Source: a virus
Taxonomy: Duplodnaviria > Caudoviricetes
Length of the DNA stretch: 59,445 bases
Reading direction: 5' to 3' (one strand)
IMG/VR virus record: IMGVR_UViG_3300017727_000011
Location: 1-59,445 of that record
The number at the start of each line of letters is the position of its first letter. Positions within the stretch are counted from its first letter, which is position 1. Positions 15,240 to 34,423 of this stretch are shown piece by piece. A program made the position numbers and the translations under genes. Under the pieces are notes generated by a model, which searched no databases, had not been told where the DNA came from, and worked only from the letters and a program-made list of their open reading frames with translations.

Positions 15240-16446
15240 CAATTGTCATAATACCTGTTTCTTTTGTACTATCTACCTTTTTATTCTTCTTTGGTTTCAT
15301 CAATCCTAAAGGATCCATTCCTTGAATTCTAGGAGATAAATCTGCTCCCTCTCTAATCAACTTAGCTACTTCAGGATTTTCACGATACATCATTCTTTGT
15401 AATCGTTCATCCTCGGTATAAACTTCACCACTTTCAATTCTTTGTTTTGTTTCTAAACTTTGATCTTCAGGATTTAATTCTCCCGCAGCTAGTCCTTCAG
15501 TAATTACTGCCATGACACCCGCAGGTCCCCATAGTGCACCTCTTAGTAATGTTTTAAAATTACTCGCAATAGCTTTCTTTGTAGCAGGAGAATTAAAATC
15601 AAATTTATCTCCTAGCTCTTCTTTTGCTTTCGAAACAGCATCAACAGAGGCTCCATCTACAACGGATTCCATTGCAAATTTTATTCTTTCTTTGCCAAAG
15701 TTTTTGGTCAATATTTTATATTTTTTTGGATCCTCTTTTTTTAATTGTTCAATCATTGGACCAAATTTAATATCAGAAACTTGAGCCTTATCAATTGCAT
15801 CAAATTGTTGACCAACAAATCTTTCTAAACTTTGAGTCTTTGGTCCACCTGGAACATCTGGAAGTGCTAAAACATATCCTTTATCAATAGCAAGTTTATT
15901 CAAAGCATCTTTAGTATAGGTTCTGTATCCTAAACCAGTTCCACCTTTTAATTTTGCAAGGTCCCCTCCCTGATTCATATCTTTCAAAAATTGTTGGTTG
16001 TTGAAATATTTGTATTCTGCTAAATCTTTTGGAGTTCTAATAACATCTTTTTTATAAGTATCTGTGTACCAATCTTTAAAAGTCATTTCTGTTGGTCTGA
16101 AAGGTTTGATATCTACAAATTCATAACCCATAGGAGGAACACGTTTAGATTTAAATTTATCAAGTTGCATTTCTTCTACGTTTACCAGTAACTCACCAGG
16201 AGAAAGTCCTAAAATATTTTTCTTATAAGAATCTGTCACATTTAAAATTGTTCCTGAACGCATGACACCTGGTGTAGTTGTACTAGCACGTAACACTTGT
16301 TCTGTTCCTCCAGGGGGAAGTCGATAGGTTGATGCCACTCTACTAGAAGTGGTTTGAGAAGTTCCTCCTCCAGCTGTTGGAATATTAATCCCTTCATCCA
16401 ACACACCTTTTCTTACTTTTGCTAGAATATCTTTTAAGTTAGCCAT
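15223..16446 (-). CDS. Hypothetical protein, possibly an internal virion protein
   Basis: Long ORF between TerL and portal; likely start MANLK at 16446. Confidence 0.6.
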   Translation of the reverse strand: MANLKDILAKVRKGVLDEGINIPTAGGGTSQTTSSRVASTYRLPPGGTEQVLRASTTTPGVMRSGTILNVTDSYKKNILGLSPGELLVNVEEMQLDKFKSKRVPPMGYEFVDIKPFRPTEMTFKDWYTDTYKKDVIRTPKDLAEYKYFNNQQFLKDMNQGGDLAKLKGGTGLGYRTYTKDALNKLAIDKGYVLALPDVPGGPKTQSLERFVGQQFDAIDKAQVSDIKFGPMIEQLKKEDPKKYKILTKNFGKERIKFAMESVVDGASVDAVSKAKEELGDKFDFNSPATKKAIASNFKTLLRGALWGPAGVMAVITEGLAAGELNPEDQSLETKQRIESGEVYTEDERLQRMMYRENPEVAKLIREGADLSPRIQGMDPLGLMKPKKNKKVDSTKETGIMTIDEVFK

Positions 16447-17902
16447 AATACTCGTATTCCTTATAATCTCTTGGGGGAGCTTCGTAGTCATCATCTAACA
16501 ACACAAAATTCCCTTGTCTATATCTCATCACTGCTTGTGTCATACTATCCACATAGTCATCATATTCTCCGTAAGGAAACGCTGCACATTCCTCAATCAC
16601 TTCTTCAGCCCACTCGTATCCTTCAGGGTAGTAAACTTTTCCTGATTCAAATACAGGTGAAACGGAGTTAACTCTTGTCAACTTATCATTACCCCTACTA
16701 GGTGTAAAGTTCGATATTGGGATTCCTAATCTGTTTAATTCTTGTGTTAAAGGCATACCTGATGCTTTTGCTTCAATGATCACACTGTCAGGATTATATT
16801 CTTTGTACTTATCTAATGCGATACGTTTGAGTTCAGGAAAGTCCCATCTTCCTTTTTGTGCATCCATCATAATTAAACTGGGACCTAACATGCCATCATC
16901 TTGAAACACGCCCCATGTTGTAATAGCAGAATAGTCAGCACTTTCTTTTTTACTAAAGGCTGTGTCATAACTTTGAATGATGTGTAATAAAGGCGGGACA
17001 CTAGGCTTTGTCCATTTCTTCCACCACTCTCTTTTGATAATAGCTGTTTCATCACTGGTGGGTTGTTGTTGATATTGAGCTTGCCATTTACTTTCACTAA
17101 TAGCTGCTTTTACTTTTTCTAATTCTTCAATCTTCCAATACTCAGGCCAGATAGGATTACCACTAGGCATGATTGCAGGGAACTCAATGACTTCCCACTT
17201 ATCTCCCTTTTCAGTTTTTGCCTGAGCTTTTATTAATTGTCCTGTTAAATCTTTCTCGCTCCATCGTGTCATAACCACAACAATAGCTCCCCCTGGTTGC
17301 AAACGCTGACGAGGACCAGAAGTATACCACTCATAGGTATTGTCCATTGCTGTATCGGACATTGCATCTTGTTCCGTGTGGGGATCATCAATAATCAGTA
17401 AATCTGCACCACGACCAGTAATCGCTCCACCCACACCCGCAGCAAAGTATTCACCACCATGATTCGTTTCCCAACGACCTGACGCTTTACTGTCAGTTGC
17501 AATCTGGACATTATGAAATATTTGATTGTACAAACTATCATCTACCAAATTCTTCATCTTTCTACCGAAGCGTGTAGCGAGTTCCGAGTTGTGGGAGGTT
17601 TGAATTATTTTTAATTTAGGATTTTTTCCAATCATCCATGCAGGAAAAAGATAGGAAGCAAATTCTGATTTTGTATGTCGAGGTGGCATGTTAACTACTA
17701 AACGTTTTATCTTTCCTTTTGCTATATCTTCAAACTTCTTTGCTATCTGTCTGTGATGTTTGCCATCAATGAACTCGGGCCAAACGTGTTTGACGAAAGG
17801 AATAAATTTTTTTTCACAATGATCGAGATATCGCATCTTCTCTGCGATGAGTTCTTGTTCTAATTGTTCTCTAGGAGCTGTGTTTAATGAGGCGTGAGCC
17901 AT
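16439..17902 (-). CDS. terL: Terminase large subunit
   Basis: NMPPRHTKS (Walker A), LLIIDDPH (Walker B), SYDTAF and DDYVDSMTQA nuclease motifs. Confidence 0.95.
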   Translation of the reverse strand: MAHASLNTAPREQLEQELIAEKMRYLDHCEKKFIPFVKHVWPEFIDGKHHRQIAKKFEDIAKGKIKRLVVNMPPRHTKSEFASYLFPAWMIGKNPKLKIIQTSHNSELATRFGRKMKNLVDDSLYNQIFHNVQIATDSKASGRWETNHGGEYFAAGVGGAITGRGADLLIIDDPHTEQDAMSDTAMDNTYEWYTSGPRQRLQPGGAIVVVMTRWSEKDLTGQLIKAQAKTEKGDKWEVIEFPAIMPSGNPIWPEYWKIEELEKVKAAISESKWQAQYQQQPTSDETAIIKREWWKKWTKPSVPPLLHIIQSYDTAFSKKESADYSAITTWGVFQDDGMLGPSLIMMDAQKGRWDFPELKRIALDKYKEYNPDSVIIEAKASGMPLTQELNRLGIPISNFTPSRGNDKLTRVNSVSPVFESGKVYYPEGYEWAEEVIEECAAFPYGEYDDYVDSMTQAVMRYRQGNFVLLDDDYEAPPRDYKEYEYYG

Positions 17903-19688: not shown

Positions 19689-20171
19689 TTATTGTTGCTG
19701 GCCATATAAGGCTTCTGGTAACCCTTTTATATAAGCAAGAACTTTATTCTCGTGTTCGTCTACCTTCGCAGGATCACCTTTGATCTTCATAATTTCTGAG
19801 TAGTGATCCTTTTTGATTTTATTTATTTTTTGTTTACCAAGATACTTGTCTCGCTCCACGTCCCCAACAGGTCTGATGACTCGTCTAATCCAAATATCTC
19901 TAGAAGTAAATGGAGCATTGGTGCTTAAACCTTTAAACAATTCCCAATTAATAAAAGATTCCTGAGGCTTATTATCATCACTAATAGCATTAAGTATCTC
20001 TTCACGTTTTTTAATCTCAGGAATAGTTTCATCATTAATCACGCTTACTTGTAAACCCAATAATGTCATACAAATGTACGCTCCATAACATCTGAAAAAA
20101 CCATATAATGGTTGATGATATATTTTTAAAGCTTCATCAGATAATAAATGATCGTCAAAACATAATCCCAT
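19689..20171 (-). CDS. Hypothetical protein
   Basis: TAATG-coupled ORF. Confidence 0.65.
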   Translation of the reverse strand: MGLCFDDHLLSDEALKIYHQPLYGFFRCYGAYICMTLLGLQVSVINDETIPEIKKREEILNAISDDNKPQESFINWELFKGLSTNAPFTSRDIWIRRVIRPVGDVERDKYLGKQKINKIKKDHYSEIMKIKGDPAKVDEHENKVLAYIKGLPEALYGQQQ

Positions 20172-20527
20172 TATGCTTCTCCATTTCTAACTTTATAATT
20201 AACATCAGCCAAATTAACCTGAGCCGTGAAACGATCTAAGTTAAAATTCTTAATATGAGTTTTGCCGTAATGCTCAAGTCTTGAATATAAAAGATCAAAA
20301 GCATCAGGAACATTATCACCAAACATGGCACGAGCCTCGCCAACAATGTGAGCCAATCCGTCTTGTTCACACTCAGGACAATTACAATCATCACTATCAA
20401 GACAATCATATTCCTTGTTCCATTGATCTTTCATCTGTACTTCTTTGAAATCATTAATCGCAATAGATACCTCTTCTTGAGGCAAACCTAGTTCAACCAA
20501 TGCATTTTTTAATATTATATCTTGCAT
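20171..20527 (-). CDS. Acidic hypothetical protein with a Cys cluster
   Basis: DCLDSDDCNCPEC; GGGAGAATAAAA RBS. Confidence 0.7.
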   Translation of the reverse strand: MQDIILKNALVELGLPQEEVSIAINDFKEVQMKDQWNKEYDCLDSDDCNCPECEQDGLAHIVGEARAMFGDNVPDAFDLLYSRLEHYGKTHIKNFNLDRFTAQVNLADVNYKVRNGEA

Positions 20528-20554
20528 TTTTTATTCTCCCTTTTAATTGGGAGT

Positions 20555-20941
20555 TTATAACGATTTAAGAAAATTATCTAGTTTTTTATAGTCTTCGCTT
20601 CTTGGTTCAAGATGCATGAGGCACGGCTCAAGATCAAAGCCTATTTTTAAAAGGTCTTTTCCCTGATTTCCCCTGAAGAGTTTAAAGCTTCTTGCTTCAA
20701 GGCTCTCTACTATATAAAAATTAATGGGGTTATATTCAAAGTGCTTATAATTCCAAGATATTTGTAAAGGTGAGATATTAATTTTTTTCATCTTGCTACA
20801 TTTAAATTCAAGCCAAAAGGAACTATTTTTATAAAATCCGTAAATATCAGGAAGACCAAATTTTAAATATGTTTCTATTGCAAAAGTATTTGCACTAAGA
20901 TTTTTTATGATTTTAGATTTAAATTTATTTTCAGGTTTCAA
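20555..20941 (-). CDS. PD-(D/E)XK nuclease (VRR-NUC / Holliday junction resolvase-like)
   Basis: E..F, GLPD, FWLEFK, ISPLQISW. Confidence 0.75.
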   Translation of the reverse strand: MKPENKFKSKIIKNLSANTFAIETYLKFGLPDIYGFYKNSSFWLEFKCSKMKKINISPLQISWNYKHFEYNPINFYIVESLEARSFKLFRGNQGKDLLKIGFDLEPCLMHLEPRSEDYKKLDNFLKSL

Positions 20942-21549
20942 TGCAATTTATAAGAAATATTTTTTATTCTCTTATCCCAACAGGCAACACAATCGAGGCA
21001 TTTATTACCTTGTGAAGGGGCTTTGCAAATAAATCCAATTGGTTTTTTATCTTTATGGACTGTTGATGTATATTTTTGAGTTTTTAAAGGTTTTCCGTCA
21101 ATCTCTGGGCTTGAATACCTAATCATTAAATTTTTTGGAAGTTTGATTTTTCCACTTTCAACCATTTTATCTAATTTTACTTTAAACTTAATTTCTCTAG
21201 TTGCTAACCAATGATTACAATGAGGGGTATTTTTTGCAATCTCAACAATTTTTAATAAGGATTTAAAATGTGGTAAATCCCCACTATCAAACCACCTGAA
21301 AAGGCGTAGGCTTTGCAATTGGTAAGTCATGACATACACAAAATATTTAGCATTAAGATGATTTAAATTAGTTTTTTTTCCTTTTTTTACGCTTGAAAAA
21401 TTATAATTGCCCCTGAGTGCGTAGCATTTTGAACACGTTGTATTTTTTTTCTTGGCTAGTTTTTGCCCTGTTATACACTCACGAGCATCAAGACCAAAAG
21501 AAAAACAATTTAATTTTGACGTTTGACTTAATTTGATTAGTTGTTGCAT
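20938..21549 (-). CDS. GP88-like Cys-rich protein
   Basis: C..G..L......CSKCYA, FRWFDSGD, CKA....KCLDCVACW...ISYKLH. Confidence 0.75.
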   Translation of the reverse strand: MQQLIKLSQTSKLNCFSFGLDARECITGQKLAKKKNTTCSKCYALRGNYNFSSVKKGKKTNLNHLNAKYFVYVMTYQLQSLRLFRWFDSGDLPHFKSLLKIVEIAKNTPHCNHWLATREIKFKVKLDKMVESGKIKLPKNLMIRYSSPEIDGKPLKTQKYTSTVHKDKKPIGFICKAPSQGNKCLDCVACWDKRIKNISYKLH

Positions 21550-21574
21550 TTTATTCTCCCTAAATATTGGGATA

Positions 21575-22747
21575 TTATACCTTGGTTAAATCAAAAAGAT
21601 AAGCTTTTTTTCTACTCATTTTTTTAAAAAATTGTAAAAAATCCTCTTCAAATTGTACGAAGTTTTCACAAGGAAAAACAAATTTTGATTTGCTCCAATT
21701 AAAGATAAAAGGTCTTTTTAATTCTCTATCAGGATAGTTTTTTATTGATCGTACTTTATTGTTGAACTTTTCAAAAAGGTTAATCAATGTTTCAAACTTA
21801 CAAGCATCCTGACAATTAATTTTTTTAAATATTTCTGTATATTCTTTAAGAATACCTTTTGAATTATCTTTTTTTACTTCTTTTTTATTGGGCTTTTTCT
21901 TAGGTTTTATTTTGGGCTTTTCTTCGACTTCTTTATTTTCATCAGGTATTAAAAGTTTTGTATATTTATCAAAATATTTAAATATTCCTGACGCATTTTT
22001 TCCCAGACTTGTCATGTGTTCGCCCCTTGCTCTATCGTTTTGCACCACTTCTAAAAATATTTTTATGAAGTAATTTTTTAATTCTTGTAAACTTTTATGA
22101 TGTTTTGATTGAATAACTATTGGTGAAAAACTCCCACCAATGTTATATTCAAAATCAAAGACACCGACATATCTATCATTTATTAATGGAATATATTTTA
22201 TTTTAAAATCTACTTTCCATGTTTTTGGTATATCAAAAGATATTATTTCAGGGTTTATAATTGATAGTTCGTTATCATCTTTTTTATGATATTTTTCAGG
22301 TACTAAAAGCTCTATTAATCTTCTTTCTTCTTTTTGCCATTTCTCATAGTCGCTATTACTATTATCATATTCAAGGTTTGACGTGCTTTCTACTTTTGGA
22401 TCTATTATTGCGTCTTGGCTTTCCTCTTCTTCTTCCTCTTCCTCTTCTTCTTCTTCCTCTTCCTCTTCTTCTTTCTCTTCTTCTTCCTCTTCTTCAGCGA
22501 AATCTTTATAAACATTTGGATATTTTTTTCCTAATTGTTTATTTTCATATTCTTCAAGATTTTCTCTTTCTTCCTCGTTATCAGAATTAATTTTTTTAAA
22601 TAAATCTAAACTAGCTTGAGCAAGATTTTCTAAATCTGTGCTGATAGACTTAATTTCTTCTTTCAATTCAATAATGTCATCTTGGTTTTGACGTTGTATT
22701 TTTAAATATTTTACTTCCCTGATTACTTCTTGAATTGTTTTAGACAT
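21575..22747 (-). CDS. Hypothetical protein with poly-Glu tract
   Basis: Likely start MSKTIQ at 22747; E7-K-E17 tract. Confidence 0.7.
   Translation of the reverse strand: MSKTIQEVIREVKYLKIQRQNQDDIIELKEEIKSISTDLENLAQASLDLFKKINSDNEEERENLEEYENKQLGKKYPNVYKDFAEEEEEEEKEEEEEEEEEEEEEEEEESQDAIIDPKVESTSNLEYDNSNSDYEKWQKEERRLIELLVPEKYHKKDDNELSIINPEIISFDIPKTWKVDFKIKYIPLINDRYVGVFDFEYNIGGSFSPIVIQSKHHKSLQELKNYFIKIFLEVVQNDRARGEHMTSLGKNASGIFKYFDKYTKLLIPDENKEVEEKPKIKPKKKPNKKEVKKDNSKGILKEYTEIFKKINCQDACKFETLINLFEKFNNKVRSIKNYPDRELKRPFIFNWSKSKFVFPCENFVQFEEDFLQFFKKMSRKKAYLFDLTKV
22421..22495. repeat. (TTC/CTC)n trinucleotide run encoding poly-Glu
   Basis: 24 of 25 consecutive codons are GAA or GAG on the minus strand. 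Confidence 0.95.
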
Positions 22748-23342
22748 TTGCTTCCCACCTTTGAATTGCTTCATCCCAAAATTTCTTAGCCTCTATTTTA
22801 AAATAAGGTTCAAGCTGATTATTAAAAACATTTTTAATATTAGGATTATTGATTACATCCCACTCACTTCCGTCATGATATTTTTTAGTGCTTTGTTTAA
22901 TTTTAATAGAAATAGGATGTTTGCCATATCTATCCGTAAATTGATAATGAGGTTTACCAATTTTTATAATTTTCCATTTTACATAATCTCTTTTTCTAAA
23001 TGCATTACAAAAAACAAAATCACCAAGTTTAAAATTATTCTCAACAATAATTTGTTTTTCATCAAATCTATCAAATTCTCTAATAGGTTTTGAATAAGGT
23101 AATTCTTTAATATTTGGATTTTCTTTAAATGCTTTTTTATAAGCTTGTTCAAATAAAGTAAGGTCTAAAGCTTCTTCTAAATAAATCTTACCCATTACAT
23201 TGTTATTATTACTATCAACATATTTTGCAAAATAAGAAAATGGGCTTATTTTTTTGTAAATATCTAAGTAAACAACATCCATGCTAGGAACTTCTAACCA
23301 TGCGTTTTTTTGATCTGTGTATAAATTATAAGTTTTTTTCAT
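22740..23342 (-). CDS. Hypothetical early-region protein
   Basis: AGGGGAATAAAATG RBS; WLEV..ISPFSY..YLEE motif seen in phage early proteins. Confidence 0.7.
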   Translation of the reverse strand: MKKTYNLYTDQKNAWLEVPSMDVVYLDIYKKISPFSYFAKYVDSNNNNVMGKIYLEEALDLTLFEQAYKKAFKENPNIKELPYSKPIREFDRFDEKQIIVENNFKLGDFVFCNAFRKRDYVKWKIIKIGKPHYQFTDRYGKHPISIKIKQSTKKYHDGSEWDVINNPNIKNVFNNQLEPYFKIEAKKFWDEAIQRWEANV

Positions 23343-23402
23343 TTTATTCCCCTTTAATCTAGTATCCCAGAATAATAGGATACTAGAAAAAATTCAAGCT
23401 TT

Positions 23403-23657
23403 TTAATCAGATAAATCTCTAACTAAACTATAACAATCATGCTTTTCTAAAATATTAGCTACTTCAACTTGAGCGTCTTTTGATAAAGTTTCTTCTTGGA
23501 CTTCTTTTAATGCCATTATCCAATTATCGAGTTCTTGTAAGCAAAGGGTAAGATCAGCATGTTCTTTTACTATTAAATTCATAGCTGATTTATCGATAGG
23601 GGTTAATTCGATTTCATATCCTTCAGGCTTTCCATTTTCATTAATTATTGTTTTCAT
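23403..23657 (-). CDS. Hypothetical protein
   Basis: TAATG-coupled ORF. Confidence 0.65.
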   Translation of the reverse strand: MKTIINENGKPEGYEIELTPIDKSAMNLIVKEHADLTLCLQELDNWIMALKEVQEETLSKDAQVEVANILEKHDCYSLVRDLSD

Positions 23658-24538
23658 TATCTTAACTCCATTAATCCTTTAAGATCATCAACAAGTTCTG
23701 AAGATACAATAGAAAGAGATTTACCAATTTTTTCATTTAAAATTGTATGATTAAAATCGTTCCAAACTTTCTTAACATCATTAGTATCTTTACAAGTTTT
23801 TAAATACTCACGCATTTTTGTTAAATTTGTATAATGCTCTTCAAGAAGTTTTTTTACAGATAAATTTAAGTGTTCCTTTGTCTTCACATATTCTTTTAAG
23901 AAATTAAAATCCTTTTTTGTTTTAACCCTAAAATCTAACTTATGGCTACTTATATCTGGCACTTCAAAATAAAAAGGATTAGGAATTTTTTTATCATCAT
24001 AATAATACGAAAATACAACAGGGCAATTATTTCTAATCCATGTAGATACTTTATCACCCATATTACTATCGTTTCTTGGTTTTTGAAAACTATTAGGAAT
24101 ATTAGACGAAAAGACATTTAGACAAAAAGGATTTAAATCTTGTTGTAGTAATTCATCAAAATGCAATGCTACTGCCTGATCAGTTGATAAATTAAAATCC
24201 AAACATTTATCTGAATAATCAAAATGATAAGGCTTCATCACAGTTTTATTTCCAAGTGGATAGCTTTCCTTTTGTTCAACATCAAAAGTTGTTTTTGCAT
24301 AAAGATGACTTACTTTCGAAGTTGTTTTAAATTTTCTAAATGTTTCCAAATCAGAATGAGAGATTTGACCATACACCATATTGGTTGCTATTTGATATGC
24401 TTTAGTTCTATATGCTAAAAAATTACTAACTGCTACATCAAGTTTTTTTCTCATAGGTGTTTTTGTTTGTAAGACAATCTTAGACCATTCAGCTAAGATT
24501 TTATCTCTATGCTTGTTATTTATTTTAATTAAAGTCAT
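23657..24538 (-). CDS. Hypothetical protein
   Basis: 293 aa; AAGGAG RBS behind a sigma70-like promoter. Confidence 0.75.
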   Translation of the reverse strand: MTLIKINNKHRDKILAEWSKIVLQTKTPMRKKLDVAVSNFLAYRTKAYQIATNMVYGQISHSDLETFRKFKTTSKVSHLYAKTTFDVEQKESYPLGNKTVMKPYHFDYSDKCLDFNLSTDQAVALHFDELLQQDLNPFCLNVFSSNIPNSFQKPRNDSNMGDKVSTWIRNNCPVVFSYYYDDKKIPNPFYFEVPDISSHKLDFRVKTKKDFNFLKEYVKTKEHLNLSVKKLLEEHYTNLTKMREYLKTCKDTNDVKKVWNDFNHTILNEKIGKSLSIVSSELVDDLKGLMELR

Positions 24539-24562
24539 TTGATACTCCTTATCTTAATTAGT

Positions 24563-24598
24563 TGGGATATTATAACCAAAAAAATATCTAAAAGTCAA
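24563..24598 (-). promoter_or_regulatory. sigma70-like promoter with ATCCCA box
   Basis: TTGACT-18-TATAAT-ATCCCA. Confidence 0.7.
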
Positions 24599-24617
24599 TC
24601 TTGTAAATAAAGTTTTT

Positions 24618-25019
24618 AAAAAAATGAGGGAACGATTTACTATTAGGGGAATAAAAGTAAGGATAGGAATAAAAGTTATCAAACGCTCCCTCATTTCGTG
24701 ATCAAGGATTGTACTCTACTGCTCCGTCTACCAGCAGAATTTCGGATAAGCATACAACCCTAATGAAGAAAATCAGCTTACATATACCTCTGCCAAAATT
24801 CTTCACTTTCAATATGGCTTTGTTTATACCCACAAGGCTTGACTCCTTGGGACAGGAATAATTTAAACATTTTTCCCGTACTGAAACATGGTCTGGTGTT
24901 TCTTTTCTTGCCTGTACCATATAGAAACTTTTAGAAAGCGTAGGCAGTCCCATAGAGCAATCTATTGCCTGATCAATTACTTCAGGCTCAACTACTTTAG
25001 TCTGTTTTTCACTACGCAT
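24618..25019 (-). ncRNA. Candidate large structured non-coding RNA (family unknown)
   Basis: Own promoter, at least 9 stems, a possible pseudoknot, G-U pairs that work only on the minus strand, and a terminal hairpin plus U-run. Confidence 0.55.
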
Positions 25020-25025
25020 GATTAT

Positions 25026-25053
25026 AAGATAGTGAGATATATTAGGATGTCAA
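25026..25053 (-). promoter_or_regulatory. sigma70-like promoter for the candidate ncRNA
   Basis: TTGACA-16-TATCTT; spacer contains ATCCTA and ATCTCA; predicted start near 25019. Confidence 0.65.
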
Positions 25054-25064
25054 TACCCTAAAAT

Positions 25065-25096
25065 AAAAAAACCCCTGAAGTATTTATCAGGGGTTT
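25065..25096 (-). terminator. Intrinsic terminator
   Basis: AAACCCCTGA-loop-TCAGGGGTTT followed by a T-run. Confidence 0.8.
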
Positions 25097-25180
25097 ATGA
25101 GTGAAAGATCGTTATTTACTTTCTATTTCCAAAAAACAAAAAGTCAATTAGTTTTGCAAATTTTTCTATAAGCCAATTCA

Positions 25181-25378
25181 TTATCGTATCTCCTCTACTT
25201 CTTCAATTCTAAATTCTTCAATCTTTGATTTGTCAGCTTGTATTGATCTATCATTATTTTTATCAAAGTACATAGCTCCTTTATCTTCTATTTTTTTTCT
25301 AGCATCATCTTGTGTTTTTGCGTTTAATATAAAGGTTTTAGCATAAGCTTCATAAACTCTTACCTTATAAGTCGGCAT
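25181..25378 (-). CDS. Small hypothetical protein
   Basis: AGGAGAATAAAA RBS; YKVRV.E....I.A....A pattern common in phage early proteins. Confidence 0.7.
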   Translation of the reverse strand: MPTYKVRVYEAYAKTFILNAKTQDDARKKIEDKGAMYFDKNNDRSIQADKSKIEEFRIEEVEEIR

Positions 25379-25380
25379 TT

Positions 25381-25608
25381 TTATTCTCCTTTTAAAATTA
25401 GATTTGTTTGTAAATTTTCTAACTTACTCGCTATAGTGTCTGCAACATAAAATTCTACATCTGCGACTGTTTTGTTCATTACAAGGTCTTTAGTTTTATC
25501 AGCATTGTATTCATACAAAATTTCTTTTTTACTCGCCTCTGTAATTTGTTTTAATTGATCTTCCAATATTTTAGTAATTATGGAAAGTGATAGGTTATAA
25601 TTTTTCAT
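25381..25608 (-). CDS. Hypothetical protein
   Basis: Packed, co-oriented ORF. Confidence 0.65.
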   Translation of the reverse strand: MKNYNLSLSIITKILEDQLKQITEASKKEILYEYNADKTKDLVMNKTVADVEFYVADTIASKLENLQTNLILKGE

Positions 25609-25613
25609 TTTTA

Positions 25614-25889
25614 TTATCTCCTTACGGCAATATCAGGATTTTTCCTAATATAAGAAATTAACTTATCATAATATTTTATACATCTACGACCTGACGCAAT
25701 TATTTTTTGCTTATCTTCTAAAGAACTGTGATTATCTTTTTTAGCCCAATCTATAAAATCATATTTCATTTTTTTAAAATCCTCTAACATATCAATTCTT
25801 TGATTATGCCCTAAATAAGCTAGATCTTTAAATATCTTGCCTTGTCTTTTTAAGTAATGTGTATAAAAAATATTTTTTTTGTATTCCAT
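25614..25889 (-). CDS. Hypothetical protein
   Basis: Start MEYKK behind GAAGGAG. Confidence 0.65.
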   Translation of the reverse strand: MEYKKNIFYTHYLKRQGKIFKDLAYLGHNQRIDMLEDFKKMKYDFIDWAKKDNHSSLEDKQKIIASGRRCIKYYDKLISYIRKNPDIAVRR

Positions 25890-26497: not shown

Positions 26498-26527
26498 AAT
26501 ATATTACAACTTATTGGGATTTGTCAA
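26498..26527 (-). promoter_or_regulatory. sigma70-like promoter with ATCCCA box
   Basis: TTGACA-18-TATATT, with ATCCCA in the spacer. Confidence 0.6.
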
Positions 26528-27026
26528 TATCTGATTGATCTTCAATTTCAGAATAATCTGCGTCTTGAATTAATTCATTTTCTTTTCTTAGATTTTCTAA
26601 TTTTTGTTGAAGTTCTTTTCTGGACATATTGTCAAGACTAGCAGTAACAACTTCTTTTCTTTCAACATAAAAACCACCTAAGAGGCCTCTTCTATATTCT
26701 GCATTAATCGCAGCGGAATATTGTTTTTCCTCAACTGCCATATCTCTTAATCTTGCCATTTCTCTGGCATGTTTTTGAAATTCAATTTTACTAGCTTTAG
26801 AATATTCTTTTGTAAGGGTATCAATAAAATCTACAACCTTAGGATACATTTTAGGATTTTGTAAATTACAAGCTATTTGGGTAGCTGAGTGCTCTGAGTA
26901 TCCAGCCATTTTCGCACATTCAGTGGGAGTAGCTCTGCCATTCTCTTGAACAAGGTATTGAGCAAAGGCTCTTTGTTTTCTAGTTAGACCTTCATCATCT
27001 TTTATATCACCAATTTGTTTTGACAT
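26511..27026 (-). CDS. terS: Terminase small subunit
   Basis: LTRKQRAFA...TECAKMAGYSEHSA helix-turn-helix motif; SAAINAEYRRG...YVERKE. Confidence 0.8.
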   Translation of the reverse strand: MSKQIGDIKDDEGLTRKQRAFAQYLVQENGRATPTECAKMAGYSEHSATQIACNLQNPKMYPKVVDFIDTLTKEYSKASKIEFQKHAREMARLRDMAVEEKQYSAAINAEYRRGLLGGFYVERKEVVTASLDNMSRKELQQKLENLRKENELIQDADYSEIEDQSDIDKSQ

Positions 27027-27091
27027 TAGCAATCACAATCCTCTTCTATATCAAGTCCACAAAGTGGACAGTAAATTATATCTTCTTCCAT
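27026..27091 (-). CDS. Cys-rich acidic micropeptide (21 aa, not in ORF track)
   Basis: MEEDIIYCPLCGLDIEEDCDC; TAATG-coupled to terS. Confidence 0.45.
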   Translation of the reverse strand: MEEDIIYCPLCGLDIEEDCDC

Positions 27092-28510: not shown

Positions 28511-30388
28511 TTATTTACCAGCTTCACCCCAAGTTTTTCCTACTCGAACATTTACGACACTAGGAACTTTTAACTTATCCACGCAAGTTTCCATAATTTC
28601 TCGTACTCTATCAACTTCTTGGGAGTTTTCAAGAGATATATCAAGTTCATCATGGATTGCAATATCGGCAACAATACCTTCTTCAAACAAAGTCAGCATA
28701 GCTTGTTTCGTTTGATCAGCGGCACTCCCCTGAATTAATTTATTCAAGGATTTATACGTAAAGGCACGTTTAATGTCATTACCATATTCGACAACTGCTT
28801 CTGGGTGAGGAAGAGCTTTATTAATTCCAAAGCGATTAGGTTCCCATAAAGGAAATCGACATTTACGACCTAACAGAGTTCGGATATGTCCATGTTTACT
28901 AGCAGTACGCATAGCAATGTCTTGTAGCTCTTTGACAAAAGGAATGGATTGATGATACTTTTTTAATATTACTTCTGCGTCTTGAATCTCGAGGCCTAAG
29001 TCAGTAGCCATTTTTCCTTTACCCATACCATACATAATACCTAAGTTAATACTCTTCGCTTCTTCACGAGTAATATCAGCCATGTCCGCTACCATTTGAT
29101 GAAAGTCTACTTCACTGCCTTCATTGTATTTGGTTAAAACATCTTCACTACCGGTCAAACCACCTTTGGAACTTAATGCATAGTGAACCAAGATGCGTGG
29201 TTCTTGTTGCGAGTAATCAAACACATGCCACTTCTTTCCTTCCTCAGGTAAGAACGCACCTTTAATCATTTGTGCAACACGTTTATCACGTGCTGGAATG
29301 TTTTGAAGGTTAGGATTAGAATAGCTCATACGCCCTGTCACCGCTCCTCCGTCTTCACCCTTCATCTGATTAATCGATGCATGAACTCTTCCTTTATAAA
29401 TATGTTTTTTCATACCCGCTAAAAAAGTATTTCTCGTTTTATAAACTTCACGGGCCTGAACGATCATCTGGGGAAACTCATGGACATGGGTATTTAAAAA
29501 ATTCTTTTGGAACGAAGGCTCATTAGATTTTTCGGTGCGAGGATAGGGTAGCTTTAAATGATCAAAAGCTTTGGCAACGCTTCTTGCAGCGTGAATCTCG
29601 ACATCAAAACCCACATACTTTTTTATCTTCGCTATCAGTCTTTTTTCTTCCGCTAATAATTCAGCATCAAGGTTATAAAGTTTTTCTTCATCAATACGCA
29701 CCCCTTTTTTCTTCATGGCATAGGTCACAGGGATTAAACGTTCTTCTAAATCAAGAATATGGGTGCACTCTTGTTTTTCAATTTCATGCATTAAACGATT
29801 GTATAATTTCAATGTTAAGACTGTATCTTGTTCCGCATAGCGACCTACATACATCGGAGGTAATCTCCACATTTCACTTTTCGCATCAACATTAAATTCT
29901 GTAGCGGCCTCTCTTAGTGCTGATTCATCTTTCGTTTCCCCAACGTAGTCATAACCTAGTGAGTTCAAGGAGTAGTAGGTTCGATTTTCATCGATTAAAG
30001 GTGCCATGATCATTGTATCTTTAATACGACCACGCAAGGAAAAGCCCTCAGCCTCTAACCACCCTATGTCATAGGAAGAATTATGAAATAATTTAGGGCA
30101 ATCAGAATTGAAGATTTTTTGTAAAGGATCACGAATGATATTTAAATCAAAGTTGCCACCGCCTTCATGTGCAATTGGAAAATAACCAGTCCAACCATCA
30201 ACGGCAAGAGATATTCCCGCAACAAAGCCGTCTTGACGGAAATATCCAGGACCCAATTTTTTAAGATTCGGATCACTAGTCTCAACATCAATTGCAATAC
30301 AAGAAGCCGAAGATAAATCTGGAACACTTTGAGGAGGCATCCATTCAGGAGGTGCTGTTTTTGCTTTTGGAAATTTGTTATCATTCAT
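28511..30388 (-). CDS. polA: Family A DNA polymerase with 3'-5' exonuclease (Leu762 type)
   Basis: AIDVET, TGRMSYSNPNLQNIP, DYSQQEPR, EAKSINLGIMYG, IQGSAAD, IHDEL. Confidence 0.95.
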   Translation of the reverse strand: MNDNKFPKAKTAPPEWMPPQSVPDLSSASCIAIDVETSDPNLKKLGPGYFRQDGFVAGISLAVDGWTGYFPIAHEGGGNFDLNIIRDPLQKIFNSDCPKLFHNSSYDIGWLEAEGFSLRGRIKDTMIMAPLIDENRTYYSLNSLGYDYVGETKDESALREAATEFNVDAKSEMWRLPPMYVGRYAEQDTVLTLKLYNRLMHEIEKQECTHILDLEERLIPVTYAMKKKGVRIDEEKLYNLDAELLAEEKRLIAKIKKYVGFDVEIHAARSVAKAFDHLKLPYPRTEKSNEPSFQKNFLNTHVHEFPQMIVQAREVYKTRNTFLAGMKKHIYKGRVHASINQMKGEDGGAVTGRMSYSNPNLQNIPARDKRVAQMIKGAFLPEEGKKWHVFDYSQQEPRILVHYALSSKGGLTGSEDVLTKYNEGSEVDFHQMVADMADITREEAKSINLGIMYGMGKGKMATDLGLEIQDAEVILKKYHQSIPFVKELQDIAMRTASKHGHIRTLLGRKCRFPLWEPNRFGINKALPHPEAVVEYGNDIKRAFTYKSLNKLIQGSAADQTKQAMLTLFEEGIVADIAIHDELDISLENSQEVDRVREIMETCVDKLKVPSVVNVRVGKTWGEAGK

Positions 30389-34380: not shown

Positions 34381-34383
34381 TTA

Positions 34384-34423
34384 GGGGCGGGGAAGAAAGG
34401 AGAGAATAAGAAGAAACCGCCCC
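34384..34423 (-). promoter_or_regulatory. GC hairpin with a 26-nt pyrimidine (anti-Shine-Dalgarno) loop
   Basis: GGGGCGG/CCGCCCC stem; loop UUUCUUCUUAUUCUCUCCUUUCUUCC; no U-tail. Confidence 0.6.

Follow-up and report, generated by a model that had tools for sequence, protein, structure and literature searches.

The terminal hairpin of a marine phage cassette carries a loop complementary to the extended leader of neighbouring genes

The terminal hairpin investigated here closes a self-promoted, apparently leaderless accessory cassette, which extends from 25019 to about 24618 on the minus strand of a marine phage. The hairpin is an RNA structure of this gene-sense strand, and our comparisons support a specific complementarity of its loop to an extended type of leader found in a subset of the local genes. 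Here and in the closest relatives, the hairpin has the features of the transcript's terminator; we further propose, tentatively and at somewhat less than an even chance, that it may also act as an anti-leader seed that lowers the translation of the genes sharing that leader. An initial annotation of the window (by which we mean the whole stretch of DNA analysed, 59,445 nucleotides in length) had described the loop as antisense to a ribosome-binding site shared by the phage's early genes and had suggested that the phage silences these genes with its own RNA. Its observation is confirmed by our analysis and its interpretation partly supported, leader silencing being a mechanism that we infer. 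Moreover, two observations go beyond it, namely (i) that the hairpin ends a conserved RNA cassette and (ii) that the opposite strand reads as a Shine-Dalgarno sequence with an ATG in relatives.

The record is a complete virus of 59,445 bases with 34% G+C, and its minus strand carries almost all of the genes. The large terminase (16439-17902, minus strand) is 59-65% identical to those of 023Pt_psg01 and of the Pelagibacter phages HTVC027P and HTVC023P, and, judged by this sequence identity, the source is therefore a marine, SAR11-type phage of the HTVC023P-type pelagiphages. In one published account (PMC12753301), phages of this type are described as having no RNA polymerase of their own and early genes that are all of unknown function. 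The hairpin sits among small genes without assigned function, in the interval flanked by a family-A DNA polymerase gene (28511-30388) on one side and by the large terminase gene on the other. A small-terminase-like gene (26511-27032, minus strand) lies ∼9 kb from the large terminase gene, with many small genes between the two. Elsewhere in the genome, a pyrimidine tract, UCUCUCCUUUCUUCCCCGCCCCUAA, is found at 34381-34405 (minus strand), just 5' of the start of the primase gene.

The unit upstream of the cassette is closed by a canonical terminator (25069-25096, minus strand), after which the cassette begins with a promoter of its own, TTGACA-16-TATCTT (25026-25053, minus strand; 10 of 12 matches), whose layout is kept in eight relatives. 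Because the ATG at 25019 lies only 7 nt past the -10 box, the transcript is probably leaderless. From this ATG, an open frame of 105 codons (24702-25019, minus strand) runs to a stop codon located 5 nt before the stem of the hairpin. Its product has no match in Pfam or PHROG, and a protein search with it yielded 18 small protein clusters of very unequal length. Despite swapped modules, the cassette frame, which has homologues in L010-L022, is open up to the hairpin in all eight variants (72-255 codons). Over the 229-767 nt concerned, frame 1 contains 0-1 stops, whereas the other sense frames have 8-32. Its preservation in eight of eight variants therefore suggests that this frame is also selected for translation, as it seems from the sequences, though its core is predicted to be an RNA structure. 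Beyond the hairpin, a second, near-consensus promoter of the sigma-70 type, TTGACT-18-TATAAT (24569-24598, minus strand; 11 of 12 matches), which is nearly invariant in relatives, heads the next gene (23657-24538; 293 codons). The element TATAATATCCCAA defines a promoter family with members at 21567-21579, 24562-24574, and 20547-20559 (all on the minus strand; two exact and one with two mismatches), which head the genes starting at 21549, 24538, and 20527, respectively.

The stem-loop occupies 24621-24697 (minus strand; 77 nt) and consists of a 14-bp stem, with its 5' arm at 24697-24684 and its 3' arm at 24634-24621, and a loop at 24683-24635. Viewed on the plus strand, arms at 24622-24634 and 24684-24696 surround the 49-nt loop at 24635-24683, which is exactly where the initial annotation had placed it. 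The repeat that it had reported is also present, since GGAATAAAAGT (minus-strand reading ACUUUUAUUCC) occurs twice in the loop, at 24648-24658 and 24666-24676. The second copy (24666-24676, minus strand), which belongs to an 18-nt tandem duplication, is however not conserved: variants B and C have an altered copy, variant D has lost it by a deletion of 6 nt, and most relatives lack it. Within the loop, an inner A/U hairpin (24637-24660, minus strand) has at its apex the C-rich hexamer UUCCCC (24651-24646), exposed in the apical loop. The predicted probability that this hexamer is unpaired is 0.99 in the window and 0.83-1.00 over all eight variants, where the near-absence of G in the loop makes an unpaired C-run nearly automatic.

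The relatives in which these variants occur were collected by a search with the 293-codon protein of the next gene, which identified 18 metagenome loci, 14 of them with upstream sequence. The hairpin is present in 13 of these 14, in eight distinct forms (A-G). Neither the hairpin region nor the 293-codon gene had a match in an annotated phage collection by DNA or protein search, and a scan of genome contigs with the 293-codon protein found no relative. Further, a model of the hairpin (R1) found no copy in HTVC027P, HTVC023P, DSL-LC04, or 19 further loci, and only a chance-level match in 023Pt_psg01 (E 0.54). Over the eight forms, nine of the 14 pairs of the outer stem are invariant; one pair shows compensatory change (A-U in five forms, G-C in three), another is a G.U pair except in one form, where it is A-U, and a third is G-C in six, G.U in one, and unpaired in one. 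The G.U pair of seven variants, which in the opposite orientation would become a C.A mismatch, favours the sense strand, and the stem substitutions across the forms keep pairing on that strand only. Folding energies point the same way: the minus strand folds at -22.9 kcal/mol with a z-score of -3.29, as compared with -0.56 for the plus strand.

These strand preferences bear on the reading in which the plus-strand sequence is the genuine ribosome-binding site of a small gene on the opposite strand. That reading draws on forms E, F, and G, where the opposite strand carries a full leader and an ATG (AGGAGGAUAAAAAAUG or GGAGAAUAAAAUG). It is nevertheless extremely improbable, because (i) the start codon is absent from the window and from variants B-D, (ii) the frames that would follow in E, F, and G comprise 25, 11, and 44 codons, respectively, so that their length is not conserved, (iii) no promoter-like site was found nearby on the plus strand, and (iv) the G.U stem pairs favour the minus strand. 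The small opposite-strand gene was therefore dropped as a main reading; for the window, the initial annotation was right in stating that the plus strand resembles a ribosome-binding site with no start codon after it. The constancy of the stem can also be read in another way, namely as part of an operator whose invariant stem would present a pyrimidine-rich apical loop to an RNA-binding protein of phage or host. The nine invariant pairs beside a loop that varies in length between 33 and 49 nt, as well as the behaviour of the cassette as an independent module, speak for such an operator. However, no candidate protein is linked to the hairpin, and the invariance of the stem may reflect recent exchange only, given that cassettes A and G are ∼92% identical; we regard a protein operator as very unlikely.

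In the window and in variants A-D, the hairpin resembles an intrinsic terminator in that a G+C-rich stem (GAGGGAGCG/CGUUCCCUC; a 9-bp core) is followed by an A and by a run of seven U residues, just after a stop codon. The seven-U run (24618-24624, minus strand) lies at and just past the foot of the stem and is confined to these variants. Unlike an intrinsic terminator, the hairpin has a loop of 49 nt (33-49 nt in relatives) rather than of 3-8 nt, and this length is why our consensus terminator scan missed it. Termination is not the conserved role of the hairpin, given that variants E-G have no U-run and that a zinc-ribbon frame of 71 codons has its start within the hairpin in forms F and G. 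For this phage, the U-run after the stem together with RNA contigs that stop in the 3' arm argues for a terminator.

The RNA evidence comes from RNA-library runs that individually contain just a minor portion of the window; four such runs, from four studies, contributed one contig each to a comparison with 23300-25700. The four contigs map to 24694-25010 (X2), 24652-24979 (X3), 24630-24921 (X7), and 24628-24921 (X8), and together they cover 24628-25010 only, uncovered parts of the compared region not being counted as silent; the contigs carry no information on strand, true ends, or level, and may include DNA carry-over. The 6-nt loop deletion of form D is present in three of the four. Contigs X7 and X8 stop in the 3' arm of the hairpin (at 24630 and 24628, respectively) with no loose end on that side, although contig ends may not be RNA ends. 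That the four studies cover nothing but the cassette is compatible with an abundant short transcript terminating at the hairpin. The cassette appears to be transcribed in the sea.

The loop core UUUUAUUCCCCU (24645-24656, minus strand) matches the leader of gene 22740-23342 with perfect complementarity. The corresponding 12-mer, AGGGGAATAAAA, is found exactly at 24645-24656 (plus strand) and at 23342-23353 (minus strand), where it ends on the A of the ATG, as the initial annotation had noted; a copy with one mismatch lies at 25379-25390 (minus strand), before gene 25181-25378. The near-matching leaders that had been listed at 20527, 21549, and 25378 were likewise found; they and a further one at 25608 follow the pattern RGGRGA(U)AAUAAAA-AUG. 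Among the 76 start regions of the phage, the leader AGGGGAAUAAA-AUG of gene 22740-23342 (23342-23356, minus strand) is the top predicted target, with a duplex energy of -18.7 kcal/mol, and AGGGAGAAUAAA-AUG (21549-21563, minus strand; gene 20938-21549) and AGGGAGAAUAAAAA-AUG (20527-20543, minus strand; gene 20171-20527) rank third and fourth. The leader AGGAGAAUAAAA-AUG (25378-25393, minus strand; gene 25181-25378) ranks 18th when the whole loop is used and fifth when the inner hairpin of 24 nt is used. Directly 5' of the Shine-Dalgarno sequence of gene 22740-23342 lies a conserved hairpin, CUAGUAUCC...GGGAUACUAG (∼23357-23384, minus strand), which is kept in the relative L019 with a U.G pair.

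The exact match by itself is within the reach of chance. At no more than one mismatch, the 12-mer has three matches in comparison with 1.05 expected, and at least three were obtained in 11 of 100 shuffles. Moreover, 0.6% of 8,486 sense-strand segments of 49 nt contain a complement of at least 12 nt to one of the 76 start regions, so that several such places per genome are to be expected by chance. Across all 76 start regions, the loop paired no better than dinucleotide shuffles (mean p 0.49, best p 0.27), and the proposed complementarity to gene starts does not hold at this level. It does hold locally: start regions of the 18 genes at 19.7-28.4 kb, a set whose bounds were drawn after the data had been viewed, pair with the loop at -10.09 kcal/mol on average, versus -7.61 kcal/mol for the other 58, and this difference was reached by none of 150 mononucleotide and none of 100 dinucleotide shuffles. 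Local genes make up five of the top seven predicted targets. The preference is carried by the specific sequence of the loop, as the 12-nt core UUUUAUUCCCCU shows a local preference of -2.32 kcal/mol, compared with -0.27 kcal/mol for a generic anti-Shine-Dalgarno 9-mer. The AAUAAA spacer that defines the extended leader is found in five of 18 local start regions versus two of 57 others; the common leader, ascribed by the initial annotation to genes that it presumed to be early, is thus shared by a subset of neighbouring genes, and it is to this leader type that the loop is specifically complementary. The likeness of the loop to gene starts does not reach past the leader itself. We also considered whether the loop might pair with the purine-rich junction of the cassette's RNA core, with its P2 stem, with an internal AAGGAG, or with the leader of the next gene, and set this aside, as by eye only short, imperfect matches were seen.

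Conservation of the loop across relatives is informative in part. Its central motif, AYUUUUAU(U)CYCC(U/A)AAUA, persists on a small A/U hairpin in every form, and the local preference is retained by loops B, D1, E, F, and G, which are diverged but not independent forms, when they are paired with the window's start regions (0-3 of 100 shuffles reach it). Locus L019, the sole diverged relative with neighbouring genes for a test on its own genes, has a loop that pairs with its 16 start regions at a mean of -8.91 kcal/mol versus -6.78 ± 0.72 kcal/mol for shuffles (0 of 300 reach it), with the orthologues of genes 25378 and 23342 as its best two predicted targets. However, clean co-variation of loop and leader, which the initial annotation had named as a check, did not emerge. 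The L019 loop CAUUUUAUUCUCC forms 4 + 7 bp around a 2x2 mismatch with the orthologous leader AAAGGAGUUUAAAAUG, rather than 12 bp, and the GGGG and GGAG forms are exchanged between two leaders in this comparison. Further, locus L009, which is 98% identical in the next gene, has neither the hairpin nor the cassette, and its leader of the 23342 orthologue is unchanged; the loop-leader pairing is therefore dispensable. At L009:1300-3120, other genes replace the whole cassette, including a 207-codon frame that is glutamine amidotransferase-like by eye. The cassette site looks like a hotspot for accessory modules.

That L009 lives without the cassette is also among the points in favour of a purely structural hairpin, which would be a terminator or 3'-end protector here and intercistronic in F and G, and whose loop would be leader-like by descent, for example as an inverted leader module. 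Such an origin would suit the opposite strand of E, F, and G, with its full leader and ATG, as well as the leader and promoter modules that have visibly been copied between genes of this phage. The loop, at 33-49 nt, would be a rapidly evolving spacer prone to slippage (an 18-nt tandem duplication in the window, a 6-nt deletion in D), and the stem with its U7 run and the RNA contigs stopping in the 3' arm are what a terminator would give. By contrast, a purely structural role accounts poorly for a central loop motif and a pairing preference that are kept in all of the diverged forms, for a likeness to gene starts that ends at the leader, for a loop of 45-49 nt, which is unusual for a simple terminator, and for termination that is not conserved in E-G. 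We consider this explanation possible, if on the unlikely side.

A different role in cis is suggested by relatives L018, L019 (3736-3951), and L021, in which the 71-codon zinc-ribbon frame, absent from the window, starts at an AUG in the 5' arm of the hairpin. This frame overlaps the upstream stop codon as ATGA, has no Shine-Dalgarno sequence, and gives a weak match to the DnaJ CXXCXGXG motif (E 8e-4). The hairpin might accordingly be a translational device that hides the AUG of the 5' arm until ribosomes of the upstream frame open it, thereby coupling a downstream frame (that of the zinc ribbon in F and G) or read-through into the 293-codon gene. The upstream frame, which is open to the hairpin in eight of eight variants, and the stop codon of the window, 5 nt before the stem, would both agree with such coupling. 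However, the frame from the 5'-arm AUG is just 16-46 codons long in A-E and is not conserved, the next gene has its own promoter between the hairpin and its start, and the device leaves the conserved C-rich loop motif unexplained, all of which makes it quite unlikely. The anti-leader reading of the loop is the one that we carry forward.

Upstream of the hairpin, and inside the 105-codon frame, the cassette contains a cloverleaf-like RNA core (24805-24927, minus strand), which is predicted to consist of a closing stem, P0, and three hairpins. In an alignment of 17 distinct sequences, the 24 predicted pairs are formed in 98% of cells, and seven pairs show compensatory changes, as in the stem CAAGG/CCUUG, which becomes CAACG/CGUUG and CAAUG/CAUUG. 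This covariation was equalled by none of 500 shuffles, and slid registers reached at most two such pairs. A fourth stem, GAAAC/GUUUC (GAAUC/GAUUC in one sequence), was recognised by eye and in a single-sequence fold. A comparison of the core in form A with that in form G shows differences at only 20 of 156 positions, distributed as 4/7/9 over the codon positions, which is not a protein-like pattern. The covariance model of the core (R2) finds a single copy in the window, at 145 bits. An exact pattern of the core occurs in 15 viral contigs, and a scan of viral contigs identified 13 loci, the distant ones of which have lost the reading frame while retaining ∼115 nt at the nucleotide level; the copies outside the window, in marine viral contigs and in the phage named next, comprise L035-L045, L047-L059, and L060:2632-2762. 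A diverged copy is also present in the Pelagibacter phage HTVC115P, in the unannotated spacer between gp07 and gp08 (50 bits, E 1.6e-7). Model R2 found no copy in HTVC027P, 023Pt_psg01, HTVC023P, or DSL-LC04, and the exact pattern is absent from the genomes of 185,579 species, a strict search that diverged copies would escape. In the distant relatives, the core RNA begins right after a promoter and ahead of unrelated genes, and it is therefore better viewed as an RNA gene than as a gene-specific leader.

Comparison with Rfam 15 gave no match at the gathering threshold, either in the window or in 12 related loci. At E ≤10, neither the hairpin nor the core was matched on the sense strand in the interval 24450-25150, and the only overlap was with snoZ247 on the plus strand (24756-24852; E 7.7), which is at chance level. 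By these sequence comparisons, then, the core is a covarying RNA of predicted structure that has no Rfam match and is distributed over several marine viral lineages. In relatives, a second candidate RNA motif, CCAAACACC...GUUAGUGUUUG, adjoins the core; it is absent from the window and was located at L019:3477-3566, L021:1479-1568, L035:2798-2880, L039:2216-2322, and L050:7679-7773 (minus strand), and eight of its 20 predicted pairs show double changes among four sequences.

The manner in which the hairpin might act on the leader-sharing genes can be outlined as follows. The loop would fold into the small A/U hairpin and expose the C-rich hexamer, after which the core UUUUAUUCCCCU, with its U-rich flank, would pair with the extended leader RGGRGAAUAAAA-AUG of the genes starting at 23342, 21549, 20527, 25378, and 25608. 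The pairing would cover the Shine-Dalgarno sequence as well as the first base of the start codon, and translation of these genes may consequently be lowered. The carrier transcript, which has no Shine-Dalgarno sequence, would therefore escape its own effect. The cassette would, on this model, be a dual-function RNA with its terminal hairpin as the regulatory seed. A more inclusive proposal is that of a three-in-one RNA, which would combine a leaderless translated transcript, the new cloverleaf-like RNA shared among different lineages of pelagiphages, and a hairpin that represses shared-leader genes and spares its own message; in this full form, we judge it unlikely. A phage RNA that adjusts, by way of a common leader, how a set of genes is translated would, if true, be a first regulatory handle on HTVC023P-type pelagiphages. 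The loop question aside, a covarying core with no Rfam match that is found both in marine viral lineages and in RNA libraries offers a concrete new target. Our search of the literature for pelagiphage RNAs or small RNAs found no paper, and the portions considered of two reports on HTVC023P-type pelagiphages (PMC12753301, PMC9599517), with supplements outside the scope, make no mention of small RNAs.

By functional analogy, the cassette hairpin would stand closest to RNAs whose C-rich loops act on ribosome-binding sites, namely RNAIII, CyaR, and AbcR1. RNAIII of Staphylococcus aureus is described as a long, abundant RNA in which the C-rich loops of hairpins 7, 13, and 14 bind G-rich ribosome-binding sites in several mRNAs by base pairing (PMC2837412). 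The cassette hairpin is similar in opposing a C-rich loop to G-rich ribosome-binding sites, with the difference that here the pairing is predicted only. While RNAIII is a host quorum-sensing effector with proven action, the cassette RNA is phage-borne; its motif is carried by a small hairpin nested in the 49-nt loop, and its complementarity extends into the A/U-rich spacer. RNAIII also contains an open frame, hld, and its hairpin 14 is the terminator. The same kind of C-rich loop directed at ribosome-binding sites is described for CyaR (PMC2837412) and for AbcR1 (PMC4152367). RNAs of the CyaR and AbcR1 type are stand-alone chromosomal small RNAs, whereas the cassette hairpin has no sequence or Rfam relation to them. 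They depend on Hfq. Repression of a set of phage mRNAs at their translation-initiation regions is known from RegA of phage T4, which is a functional analogue only, as RegA is a protein and the repressor proposed here is an RNA. Among phage systems, the hairpin would by analogy be closest to the c4 RNA of P1 and P7 and the sar RNA of P22, in which loops of phage RNAs pair with a phage ribosome-binding site and block translation. The likeness consists in a phage-made RNA loop set against a phage ribosome-binding site, as predicted here; c4 and sar each have a single immunity target next to them (the ant genes), whereas the cassette would address several dispersed, leader-sharing genes from a seed placed in the terminal hairpin of an mRNA-like transcript.
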